Shown: positions 22,601-63,190 of the stretch, piece after piece
Numbering within the stretch: the first letter of the stretch is position 1
Layout of the letters: each line of letters opens with the position of its first letter
Assembly (NCBI GenBank): GCA_951406725.2
Contig: OX597818.1
Coordinates: 120,590,001 to 120,654,000 of the forward strand
DNA: 64,000 nt
Direction of reading: 5' to 3'
Source of the DNA: Octopus vulgaris
Lineage: Eukaryota
Position numbers and translations under genes: made by a program
Notes under the pieces: generated by a model
Databases searched by the model: none
Told to the model about the DNA's origin: nothing
The model's input: only the letters and a program-made list of their open reading frames with translations

Positions 22601-25600
22601 GGGTGGAGATCCTCCGTTTTGTCCAGCGGATCTTCCCTCCCTCCCGCAGCTTGCGGATCCTTCGGTGGACAACCATTGTTGCCCACCTTTCATTTCTTGC
22701 TCTTTTCGAGGAGGTTTCCACCTCCTCGACTTCCTCTTCCTCTTCCTCCAATGAGGGAGCAGGACCTTATTTTGGTCCTGAGGTCAGTTCTTTTTAATAT
22801 AGCCCGGTTCCAGGTACAGGTGACACTTGGTGGGGGGTGTCTCGCAACTATCACCGGATAACTAGACTCGGCCATTCTTACAAAATCTGGAAATACTAGA
22901 TTTTCGGCTGATTGTGTCCACAGGGTGTAATAGCTTTTGACCCCTCCCAATCAGCTGCAGGCAGGATATTCACATTGAGGAGCTTGGTACTGCTGCCACC
23001 CAGACGCCGGCAGATAGTATCCTCTATCCACTCGGGCTCAATTACGGGTGGCAAGCCACAGACACAAGTCCTCGTCAACTTCTTCCCACAATAAGTGGGA
23101 AGAAACAAAATTTCTTTGTCCTCCAGAGGCTGGCTCGCGAATTTGCGAGCCACCTCGGGGGTGTCAAATAGCAACCACACCATTGCGTATTTGACCCCCG
23201 AGAGATATACTTAATAGTTGATATATGTTCCACCAACTCTTTTTCAATTACATTTTTCTCAAAGACGATGATGTTGTCGAGGGACTTGGAGTAAGTCCTC
23301 AACACCACCGTCTTCTTTTCGAACTCTTCCAACCATTTCTTGGGTGGCACTATTTCCCACTCCACATTTTTTTCATTGTTTTTGCCATGTTAAATGAAAA
23401 GTTCAAACAATAGTTCAAAAATTCAAAACAATTCAAGGGAAAAATCACAAAGACAGTCTCAACCAAACAGGAAGAAGAAGAAAAAAGATAAAAAGTTCAA
23501 TAAAGTGTTTGAAAATAAAAGATAGAAGAGAGAGCGACAGTTCAAAACACACAGCATAAAATCCTTTGGCCACATGGTACTCCTGGCCTTCAATTTGAAA
23601 CTGGAACACAGCTTCTCACAGTTGTTGTATAATTCCACATAAACCAACTTTTTCTGCGAACAATTCTCAAAATTAATTGAGAACAACACGATTCTCGAAC
23701 TAAGTTTGGAGACAGGATACGCCAGAAAGATTTCCTGCTGGTCCGAACCCTAATTCCACAGGAGAAAAAATTCTCCTTTATGCAACTTCAGGTAGCTGGC
23801 TATAGTATGAATGCTTCATGAGGTAAACGACTGGATTATCTCATCATTTCTTGCTAACTATATATATATATTTCAACAATTGAGGGTAAAATTAATTAGT
23901 TATTAATCAATTTCACCAAGTATTCAGTATGTAAAGGGACCATTTAAGGCGAATTCAAAATATTACATTGTATAAAAGGGCTTAGTAAAATAAATTACTT
24001 TGCCACATACTGAACTCATTAGAAATAGCAGCCAAAAAAGATTTTTTAGCCATTTCCAATACTTAAAGAAAATTTCTCTCAGGTAGTGCTTACTCAAAAT
24101 AACCCACGAAGGTATGGGGGTAAAAACATTAAAAAATCACAAGTGCAAAGATTATTTGAGAACGTACGTTTCTAGATCAGCCAAATACAATTCGACATTT
24201 CTTTCGTCAGCCCAAAATTTCTTAATTCGGATTTGGAAACACTGAAAGTAGGAGCATACACTTTTGGCGACTTTTCACCTCAGAAGATCCGTTCAAAACT
24301 AACAGTGCCAACAAATTCAAAATATGCAAGCGAAGAATTCCTGCTCTCCCCCTTCCACCCACGTGGGTCAGACTAGTAAATACCATATTTTATGAGTTCG
24401 GTGGCAAAGTAATTTATTTTACTAAGCCCTTTTATACAATATATATATATATATATATATATATATATATATATATATATATATATATATATATATATAC
24501 CAATTAAGGACTGAACACGAAAGTGGACAGTCAACATGCTAGATATAGACGTCAAATCGCCATTCTCCACAAAGATTATGTTCTCAAATAAAATAAAATT
24601 CAGCATAAACCAAACCAATAAATAAGACAAATGAAAATATACGAAATGAAATAATCACCTGTGTACCGATCAGTTTCAGTTATTAATATCGGCAAGGATA
24701 TCTGTAACTTCGTCAGCACAGTCTGTTATGAACATAATTTGCTGGACTAGATGCAAAAAACGATACCGGAGTTTCGCATGCATAAAGTACAACCGATTAA
24801 GTTCGAATGTATCTTTCAAATGCCTTTACTTTTGGCGCGCTGAGACCCGAAAAACCAGCCAGCAGCTAATAATTAGCAGCAGTCAATTTATCGGTTTAAG
24901 AACATATATTTTATATCAATTTCTACCCTTAATTAAATTTTAATATAAATATATGTTCTTAAAACGATAAATTGACTGCTGCTAATTATTAGCTGCTGGC
25001 TGGTTTTTCGGGTCTCAGCGCGCCAAAAGTAAAGGCATTTGAAAGATACATTCGAACTTAATCGGTTGTACTTTATGCATGCGAAACTCCGGTATCGTTT
25101 TTTGCATCTAGTCCAGCAAATTATGTTCATAACAGACTGTGCTGACGAAGTTACAGATATCCTTGCCGATATTAATAACTGAAACTGATCGGTACACAGG
25201 TGATTATTTCATTTCGTATATTTTCATTTGTCTTATTTATTGCTTTGGTTTATGCTGAATTTTATTTTATTTGAGAACATAATCTTTGTGGAGAATGGCG
25301 ATTTGACGTCTATATCTAGCATATTGACTGTCCACTTTTCGTGTTCAGTCCTTAATTGGTATATATAAATATTTTAATCTTCGGATTCTTTTTAATATGC
25401 TAGACCACTGGTTTTAATTGACTAATATCAATTTCTACCCTTAATTAATTTATATATATATATATATATATATATTTCAGGAGGTGTGAGAGGTTCTGAC
25501 AGAAAATTAAGGAACATACCGCCTTAAAAGGAAGCGAAATAATATTTCTTCGGGTTATTTTACTTAAATTAAGGTGTATATCTCTTGCTTTTTTTAACTG

Positions 25601-61941: not shown

Positions 61942-63190
61942 AGTTGAACTAAAACTAATTTTTAAATTGTGTCTATTGAAGAGTTTCCTATAAGTATGGT
62001 TAACTGGAAAATGTCTATCTATCAGTGCTAGGAAATATTTACCTATATTGAAGGCCACCTCGGGTGAGTAAGGGGGCGTAAACCAGATGACCTTCCTATT
62101 TCTATTATTCCTTTTCCTTACTGTTGGGCTAGTGATAGGTGTATATTTTATTTTTTCGCTAAAACCACTATCTTTTAAAGCCTTATTATAAACTGGGGCA
62201 ACGCTATTGAAGATGTCCTCATCAGATGAGAGGCTAGAAATCCTCTTACTAATATTTTTAACTAAATTTTTGAATACTCTTCAATAGACACAATTTAAAA
62301 ATTAGTTTTAGTTCAACTACCAATTTTAAAAACATAATCAAACATAACATACAAAAAACACAAGAAGAAAACAGCTGTTCATGCAGGAATAAAGAATTGT
62401 GCCCGCTAAATGGAGCTTGCATGTCCAAGACCATCATATATGAAGCTACCGTAAACTCTATAACCACTAAAGACACCGTTTCGACGAAGAAATACGTGGG
62501 CCTTACAGAGGGTAATTTCAAGGCCAGGTTCAATAACCACACTCTGAGCTTTAGGCACTGGAACAAAAGGAAAGCGACACAATTATCTAATCATATTTGG
62601 TCTTTAAGAGATAAAGGTGTCGATTATAACATACAATGGAAGATTTTGGCCAGATGTAAGCCCTATACTAACGGCAGCGGAAGGTGCGGTCTATGCGACA
62701 TGGAGAGATGGCTTATCTGGAAAAGCAGCTTAGACCCTACTACATGTCTAAATACAAGGACAGAGCTTTTCGGATCATGCCCACATGTGACTAAATTTCT
62801 GTTACGTTTTTGGTCCCCTAAAGAAAACAGATAGAACATGCTTTCTATGTTATGTCCCGAGAAGAATTTATATATTTTTATATATTTTTATATATTTTTT
62901 ATGTATTTTTATATAATTTTCATGACGAAAAATGCGAGCGATGTATAAGTACGCAGGCAAGCAGAGTTATAACAGAGTAATTTCCCTTTATTTAACGGTA
63001 TTTTTTCATAACGTTTTCAAATACCCAGATAACCGAAGAGATGGTGTTGTGGATTTCCACTTCGGCATCTGAAACTCAGAGTTTTATCTTGACTACCGAG
63101 TAATGTAACATATTGTATAGATAAATTTCCTCTATTTACATAATATTGAGGTCTCTTTCTTTCTTTTGTTATCTTACCGTTTTATCAATA
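61942..63190 (+). mobile_element. Penelope-like element with inverted 5' part (RT C-terminus on -, GIY-YIG on +)
   Basis: + ORF CPLNGAC...IIYEATV...KYVGLTE..FKARF (GIY-YIG). The - strand 61942-62255 encodes RRISSLSS...VIWFTPPY...HFP..H.YRKLFNR, typical of PLE RT thumb/linker. Confidence 0.85.
63027..63089 (+). ncRNA. Degenerate hammerhead motif (U4C) in PLE 3' region
   Basis: AGATAA-CCGAAGA-GATG..CATC-T-GAAA-CTCAGA-GTT-TTATCT, about 200 nt after the GIY-YIG ORF on the same strand. Confidence 0.55.

Follow-up and report, generated by a model that had tools for sequence, protein, structure and literature searches.

Hammerhead motifs in the 3′ repeats of probable Penelope-like elements of Octopus vulgaris, including a family with a tRNA-like head

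A 64,000-nt stretch of the Octopus vulgaris genome (GenBank assembly GCA_951406725.2, contig OX597818.1, forward-strand positions 120,590,001 to 120,654,000; hereafter the window, in whose coordinates positions are given unless a locus is named) carries ten hammerhead-ribozyme motifs. Judged from sequence, these are very probably type-I hammerhead sequences in the 3′ repeats (pseudo-long terminal repeats, pLTRs) of seven families of Penelope-like elements (PLEs), here called A to G. The host genome is 2.8 Gb and the window is microsatellite-rich. All ten motif strings reported in a first-pass annotation of these letters were recovered at their coordinates and strands, with a stem I that extends one base further on each side at the 24156 site, and its estimate of about seven unrelated repeat families is confirmed at seven, whose 3′ units share only two matches of at most 31 nt. 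Because three pairs of motifs are inverted (24659/25137, 46119/46601, and 49717/52223), the ten motifs amount to about seven insertions; the pair from family D (46119/46601) is only 78% identical over its region and could be two insertions. The elements and their motifs are as follows.

23865-24393, minus strand: family B, a 566-nt unit lacking an open reading frame (ORF), here 5′-truncated, with a tail of about 100 nt, within (TA)n; short inverted piece at 24401-24448.
24155-24216, minus strand: hammerhead B, core CUGACGA/GAAA, helix III CGUACG, A.A opposition at 10.1/11.1; family-typical.
24487-25466, plus strand: family A, an ORF-less unit of about 510 nt plus tail, with an inverted 5′-joined copy at 24487-24911; within (TA)n.
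24659-24721, minus strand: hammerhead A of the inverted copy, canonical core.
25137-25199, plus strand: hammerhead A, canonical core.
33405-34016, minus strand: family C, a 5′-truncated Neptune-type PLE by its motifs, with a broken GIY-YIG (34017-33802) and a 3′ untranslated region (UTR); short inversion at 34015-34056.
33462-33496, minus strand: hammerhead C, family core AUGAAUA (A3-U8 swap), 2-bp stem II, helix III CCGG; G12A in the window copy.
46040-46450, minus strand: family D, inverted copy, with a partial tRNA-like head, (AAT)n, and a degenerate hammerhead at 46119-46163.
46400-46455, plus strand: family D tRNA-like head, 5′-truncated here at about +14; B-box-like motif at 46429-46440.
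46601-46646, plus strand: hammerhead D, CUGA(U/A)GA, extra A, 5-bp stem II, helix III CG; G12A in the window copy; element end near 46700.
49670-49818, minus strand: family E inverted 3′ piece, carrying the hammerhead at 49717-49757; 100% identical to 52162-52310.
49818-52346, plus strand: family E, a young, 5′-truncated PLE, Neptune-type by its motifs, with GIY-YIG (49811-50170), a simple-repeat-rich 3′ UTR, and pLTR; 99.5% identical to the full-length copy L212.
52223-52263, plus strand: hammerhead E, core UUGACAA (U3-A8 swap), helix III CCGG, 4-bp stem I; family-typical.
52390-52746, minus strand: family F, 3′ end of a PLE tentatively of Hydra type, tail-to-tail with E in one (TA)n; hammerhead at 52596-52678, canonical core, C11.1A here.
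61938-63187, plus strand: family G, 3′ part of a young PLE, Hydra-type by its motifs, with GIY-YIG (62277-62804), a 5′ inversion (61938-62278), and its end in (TA)n.
63027-63089, plus strand: hammerhead G, core CCGAAGA (U4C), extra U before G12, helix III CUCAGAG; family-typical.

The identification rests on the conservation of the hammerhead fold across families. Each family was searched against the genome, giving 701-3,101 first-look candidates, of which 40 were scored and 30 loci kept; among the resulting alignment rows are the window copy and some loci that were recovered twice. A palindromic helix III and an NUH site are present in all seven families, and stems I and II close the core, the stem II junction of B, E, and G having a mismatch or an additional base. 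Family majorities keep the core in 30/35 to 48/48 rows, and in family B all 11 core positions are kept in 48/48. Positions 3 and 8 covary across families, appearing as C-G, as U-A (family E, 36/36 rows), or as A-U (family C, A3 in 35/35 and U8 in 34/35 rows), while family G deviates from the core by a C at position 4 (U4C, 38/39 rows). When positions 3 and 8 were left free in a scan of 953,230 fetched bases, 276 matches fell into 34 clusters; a Watson-Crick 3-8 pair is found in 19 of these, 15 of them with a perfect palindromic helix III, compared with a palindromic helix III in 2 of the 15 clusters that lack the pair. Clusters with C3-U4-G8 number 10 (4 being families selected by design) versus none in 4 shuffles. 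Within the stems, compensatory change was counted in family A only, where it affects 5 of 19 pairs among 22 distinct copies, a level reached in 0/500 shuffles. This core covariation, together with the tRNA-like head of family D described below, goes beyond the first-pass annotation.

The same scans met ten more hammerhead motifs unrelated to the seven families (L229 (-) 2037, L228 7879, L231 1420 and 6670, L241 9822, L149 1266, L006 2115, L013 2984, L214 1836, and L113 2501), two with U4C and three with U3-A8.

How many of the ten motifs a descriptor recovers depends on its form. A strict CUGANGA/GAAA descriptor finds only 2/10, and none in 30 shuffles. A PLE-type descriptor, allowing any Watson-Crick 3-8 pair, U4 or C4, and at most one extra base at either stem II end, and demanding a self-complementary helix III, finds 6/10, far above the mean of 0.4 in 40 local dinucleotide shuffles of the window. 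Since this descriptor was tuned after the motifs had been seen, the fair test is independent DNA: in 20 stretches (200 kb in all), drawn from 20 contigs at a fixed position, it gives 5 matches versus 1.7 in 12 shuffles, all 5 with a palindromic helix III. The four motifs that it misses are lesions of the window copy, the family majority being intact. Position 12 is changed from G to A at 33462 and at 46601, where family C has G in 34/35 aligned rows and family D in 37/44; at 52596 the change is C11.1A, with C in 42/48 rows of family F; and at 46119 both stem II and stem I are broken.

Several observations weigh against reading the motifs as working hammerheads. Rfam reports no hammerhead among 116 matches in the window at E<=5, these being microsatellites and hairpins matching microRNA models only. 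The covariation in family A comes from one subfamily split plus one divergent copy, and kinship can beat a shuffle control. In families C and G the core is no better conserved than its flanks. Minimum-energy folds are mostly not the hammerhead fold; dimer folds are always lower in energy than two monomers, yet are mostly not hammerheads either, and are uninformative. In the young families E and G the core would be expected to act slowly; U4C, fixed in G, lowers hammerhead activity (PMC3088659). Finally, PLE hammerheads cleaved poorly in vitro (PMC4209133), and 8/9 Xenopus dimers are reported without cleavage (10.64898/2026.07.22.740005). It is conceivable, if rather improbable, that the motifs are decayed or structural relics, serving as a mark of PLE ancestry or as a protein-binding or dimerization signal, without cleavage in vivo. 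Such a reading would accommodate the low activity in vitro, the success of Naiad PLEs without hammerheads (PMC8557442), and the fixation in the youngest families of deviant features (U4C in G; 4-bp stem I and U.U at 10.1/11.1 in E), but it leaves aside that the 3-8 pair, G5, A6, A9, G12, A13, A14, and the A15.1-U16.1 pair are kept across families with unrelated stems, a pattern consistent with selection for the catalytic fold. Chance matches in AT-rich repeats, to which the 2/10 of the strict descriptor, the silence of Rfam, and the tuning of the relaxed descriptor on these very motifs might point, are largely refuted and can be given almost no weight, because the relaxed descriptor also picks up motifs with a palindrome in independent DNA, the lesions of the window copies are absent from the family majorities, and the motif position matches published PLE architecture.

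If the motifs are type-I hammerheads of PLEs, they would likely cut element RNA as dimers paired via the palindromic helix III, in keeping with reports that PLE hammerheads need helix III dimerization and cleave weakly (PMC4209133; PMC6765202), and they would process tandem or read-through RNA. Reverse transcription of PLEs is described as starting internally and leaving a tail (PMC11167929). Truncated reverse transcription would leave mostly 3′ ends, so that hammerheads would pile up.

The carriers have the habits of PLEs. All seven families show a fixed 3′ end with ragged 5′ ends from variable 5′ truncation, six of the seven end in (TA)n, and 5-15 of 30 loci per family hold inverted hammerhead copies. 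Reverse transcriptase (RT) and, C-terminally, a GIY-YIG endonuclease are present in families E, C, and G, which bears out the proposal that three families in the window lie 3′ of GIY-YIG fragments, and are absent from A and B. By their motifs, C and E group as Neptune-type, F and G as Hydra-type, and D as Penelope/Poseidon-type. Family E is young (40/40 top matches are 100% identical), and its full-length copies L212 and L213 have a hammerhead in both pLTRs, an RT with DKG, a CX4CxxC linker, and GIY-YIG; hammerheads on both sides are known from these family E copies, the loci read holding no full-length copy of C, D, F, or G. Family C is related to E, with 56% RT identity and a DKG plus CX2-5CxxC linker present in both. 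Family G has DKT, a CxCX5C linker, CxxC and CxH motifs, and a (TA)n target. The Hydra assignment of family F is tentative, since it rests on an endonuclease fragment, found 690-950 nt upstream in 3/30 loci, at 30% identity to G.

The families outside these three had been described as non-coding fold-back elements. That proved wrong for D and F, for which other loci show a continuation into PLE coding sequence, and the fold-backs do not define a separate class of four families: they are ordinary 5′ inversions of PLEs, present in coding families too. The PLE origin, the palindromic helix III, and the existence of non-autonomous members (A and B) are all supported.

Three further features of the coding families may be recorded here. 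The full-length copies of family E hold two overlapping ORFs (911-2350 and 2293-4620 in L212; also L213) with an in-phase U UUU UUA slippery site, which occurs in family C as well (L216, near 3690), there without a methionine before the conserved part; a -1 frameshift is likely, and a PLE ORF1 with frameshift is listed in the Figure 1 legend of PMC8557442. At 51931-52218, 286 nt of the family E pLTR, made up of the 44-nt tandem repeats, are missing from the contigs of 3/4 sequencing runs, with 8 other letters between; this probably marks a sister subfamily and not an intron, and no RNA data set is among the family E matches listed. Lastly, the window contains a large inverted segmental duplication (6352-21963 versus 35226-61941, 92-96% identical, with arm-specific insertions), which makes an empty site available for one insertion: families E and F occupy a (TA)n whose counterpart in the other arm (12721-12748) is empty.

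The new part of the finding is family D, likely a coding PLE whose 3′ repeat contains a tRNA-like head and whose offspring resemble short interspersed elements (SINEs). Its unit consists of a 72-nt tRNA-like head, (AAT)n, the hammerhead, and an optional tail of about 30 nt. One locus has 126 additional shared bases upstream of the head, and 7/8 loci fetched by these bases hold broken PLE coding sequence upstream, comprising an RT thumb and a linker-less endonuclease whose stop lies about 30 nt before the head; the head is followed by (AAT)n, hammerhead, and tail. A purely non-coding family D is rejected by this continuation. The RT thumb matches family E at E=2e-14, whereas Pfam missed the endonuclease and its direct match to that of E is weak. 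Among the database relatives (54-82% identity) are proteins carrying RVT_1, DKG, and YVDD. Of the two marks behind the clade assignment, the absence of the Cys linker is seen in the D fragments, and DKG comes from the relatives P0003 and P0026, not from a D copy. In the head itself, A-box- and B-box-like motifs stand at tRNA spacing in 12/22 complete copies versus 1/11,000 shuffles, and among phage sequences it matches an annotated tRNA best (E=1e-3).

The lengths of D copies suggest how the head may be used. Of 100 places listed, 36 were fetched, all on contig C1 and chosen by the ribozyme core alone, with one neighbour skipped. A same-strand head is present in 22/36 copies, and among these 22 the 5′ breakpoint lies at -17 to +11 in 16, at -118 in one, and at -372 or beyond in five (two likely duplicates), where uniform truncation expects 0.34 breakpoints in that 29-nt stretch; the breakpoints of families C, E, and G are spread out, unlike those of D. 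In D loci picked otherwise, 34 head matches, duplicates included, begin at -17 to +25, two internally deleted copies (reaching -70 and -126) lying outside the filter of this count. The uninverted copy L265 begins with the head's first base and is flanked by a 16-nt target-site duplication. The 3′ end of the short copies is continuous with PLE coding sequence, that is, shared with an autonomous partner, and it is this continuity that would identify the partner. Counts of exact 31-mers at the head (804), the endonuclease (490), and position -55 (146) were set aside as the main measure of a step because they are confounded by CpG decay and subfamilies (exact in 1/22, 4/7, and 5/8 sampled copies). 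In several copies (L092, L100, L110, L115, and L275) the 3′ tail of a long interspersed element (LINE) sits in the (AAT)n spacer.

From these sequences, the reading that we favour by a small margin over doubt is that transcription by RNA polymerase III begins at the head or a few bases upstream of it and that PLE protein retroposes the resulting RNA of about 250-350 nt as a SINE. The chances stand about even that a Penelope/Poseidon element captured a tRNA-derived polymerase III promoter in its 3′ repeat and that a PLE-driven hammerhead SINE spread to tens of thousands of sites. Exact matches to the 35-nt ribozyme core of D number 2,258, and three D insertions in the 200-kb sample extrapolate to about 42,000 genome-wide (95% interval 8,700-123,000).

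Against initiation at the head stand the failure of ARAGORN (0/28 loci) and of the Rfam tRNA model to call it, the 14/36 copies without a same-strand head, and the target-site duplication in only 1/8 uninverted copies; the absence of a T4 run over 160 nt in 30/30 copies fits such a transcript and is weak at 21% T. A further difficulty is a hairpin (-16 to +10) that spans the start of the head, since, with 23/36 loci inverted, fold-back could yield the same breakpoint peak. Somewhat less probable than polymerase III initiation is that the short copies are ordinary truncations, from RT stalling or cDNA fold-back at this hairpin, with the tRNA-like segment a passenger without a present promoter role. 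In many D copies the hairpin loop is indeed the junction between the head and an inverted copy of it, and the lack of a tRNA call suits a passenger. However, several copies begin at -7 to +1 without an adjoining inverted head (L253, L254, L256, L258, and L265, one of them with the target-site duplication), a stall should leave breakpoints at the stem's 3′ base (+10), which accounts for just 1/16, and the A- and B-box-like motifs are kept. Initiation by polymerase III at the head retains a slight preference.

Families A and B are carriers of another kind. Their units, of about 510 and 566 nt, contain no reading frame longer than 75 amino acids, and the tail of a copy is the start of the next unit. 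Head-to-tail repeats occur with periods of 507 nt in A (one dimer locus, L016/L026) and of 563-566 nt in B (a trimer with a 566-nt period in L221), so that both fall under the retrozyme definition of at least two consecutive ORF-less units with a complete hammerhead (10.64898/2026.07.22.740005). Such units would be copied from multimeric or circular RNA by a (TA)n-targeting PLE protein acting in trans. The 30 loci read for each family, the best of 1,327 (A) and 2,915 (B) candidates, reveal no coding partner, which counts against a PLE derivation, though rare partners may exist. This small share of the candidates, and the precedent of D and F, which also looked non-coding in the window before coding copies were found, lend some colour to the unlikely proposal that A and B are solo pLTRs of unsampled coding PLEs and not self-standing retrozymes. 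It sits poorly with the finding that the unit's own other end makes up both its tail and the sequence 5′ of it, with the head-to-tail repeats, and with the lack of PLE protein in register upstream in 60 A and B loci. One candidate arrangement, family A as the 5′ pLTR of G at L121, where both occur, was rejected: G starts there with its own inverted 3′ piece, and its 3′ end shares no sequence with A.

The exceptional density of motifs first claimed for the window is not supported. The counts of 6 matches in 64 kb and 5 in 200 kb (p=0.03 by motif, 0.15 by insertion) make the window no more than modestly denser than the DNA sampled elsewhere; extrapolated from the 200-kb sample, intact motifs would run to tens of thousands across the genome, the interval being very wide. 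Both density and diversity are expected because PLEs make up 6.83% of the octopus genome in 190 families according to the published annotation (PMC13282606, supplement), a paper whose available text makes no mention of hammerheads.

As first given, then, the finding is mostly ordinary for a PLE-rich animal genome, since PLE hammerheads and their ORF-less derivatives are already known. Literature searches over titles and abstract openings returned no octopus hammerhead and no PLE-mobilized tRNA SINE; they did not cover Repbase, Dfam, or SINEBase, which may hold family D. If the reading of family D is true, it would tie repeats combining a polymerase III promoter and a hammerhead to a specific PLE, whereas those of schistosomes have long been known without a named mobilizer (PMC6765202); it would widen the partners of SINEs beyond LINEs and make every insertion with a D 3′ end a potential source gene for a hammerhead-bearing SINE. 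In addition, families that are young and near-identical and have a fixed variant of the core (E with U3-A8, C with A3-U8, and G with U4C) stand beside the canonical A, B, D, and F and offer a natural set in which to ask whether an element can move only if its PLE hammerhead cleaves.

The neighbourhood holds further repeats and one gene-like match. A Mariner-type transposase lies at a TA site (15604-16470, plus strand) in the left arm of the inverted duplication only, and broken non-LTR (long terminal repeat) retrotransposons with RVT_1 and zf-RVT lie at 17842-21963 (plus), 35226-39359 (minus), and 41209-44347 (minus). A further paralogue of the 46-kb region is found about 106 kb away (L092). 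An exon-sized match to cytochrome P450 (E=7e-23) is at 1220-1702 (minus), and a 451-nt unit is tandemly duplicated at 99% identity at 3939-4844, where the descriptor finds no hammerhead.

The octopus motifs are closest to the minimal hammerheads of PLE pLTRs (Cervera and de la Pena 2014, PMC4209133), sharing with them the short stem I, the extra base after A9, the palindromic helix III, the U3-A8 variant, the solo and inverted copies, and the presence of many unrelated families per genome. The A3-U8 family (C) and the recurrent U4C families (G and two others) are not described in the available text of that paper, and an A3-U8 core was not found in searches of literature and supplements, which did not extend to Lunse et al. 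2017, the likeliest source of such variants. The PLE clades of Craig et al. (2021, PMC8557442) share the motif sets found here: DKG with CX2-5CxxC in E and C, DKT with CxCX5C and (TA)n in G, and DKG without the linker in the relatives of D, along with inversions, 30-40-nt tails, and an ORF1 with frameshift. Unlike these families, the octopus rows in its supplement are Naiads in the 2 of 4 occurrences available, and the word tRNA does not occur in that supplement. Families A and B resemble non-LTR retrozymes, which are ORF-less tandem units each with a type-I hammerhead and have been proposed to be non-autonomous PLE derivatives (PMC7229834; 10.64898/2026.07.22.740005); they differ from the retrozymes of those sources, as far as their available text goes, in their 507-566-nt units, mostly dispersed monomers, PLE inversions, and (TA)n targeting. 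Family D recalls Helenus, Ajax, and Cassandra (PMC10886601), with a tRNA- or 5S-like segment inside a terminal repeat; those elements are LTR-type and non-coding and lack a hammerhead, whereas D is a PLE. Its nearest counterpart is the group of SINE-like hammerhead repeats of Schistosoma, in which a polymerase III-type promoter precedes a hammerhead in a short repeat (reviewed in PMC6765202). Unlike the Schistosoma repeats described there, D copies are dispersed and inverted, not tandem (0/30), and the head and hammerhead lie within the 3′ end of a coding PLE, so that the likely mobilizer is named.

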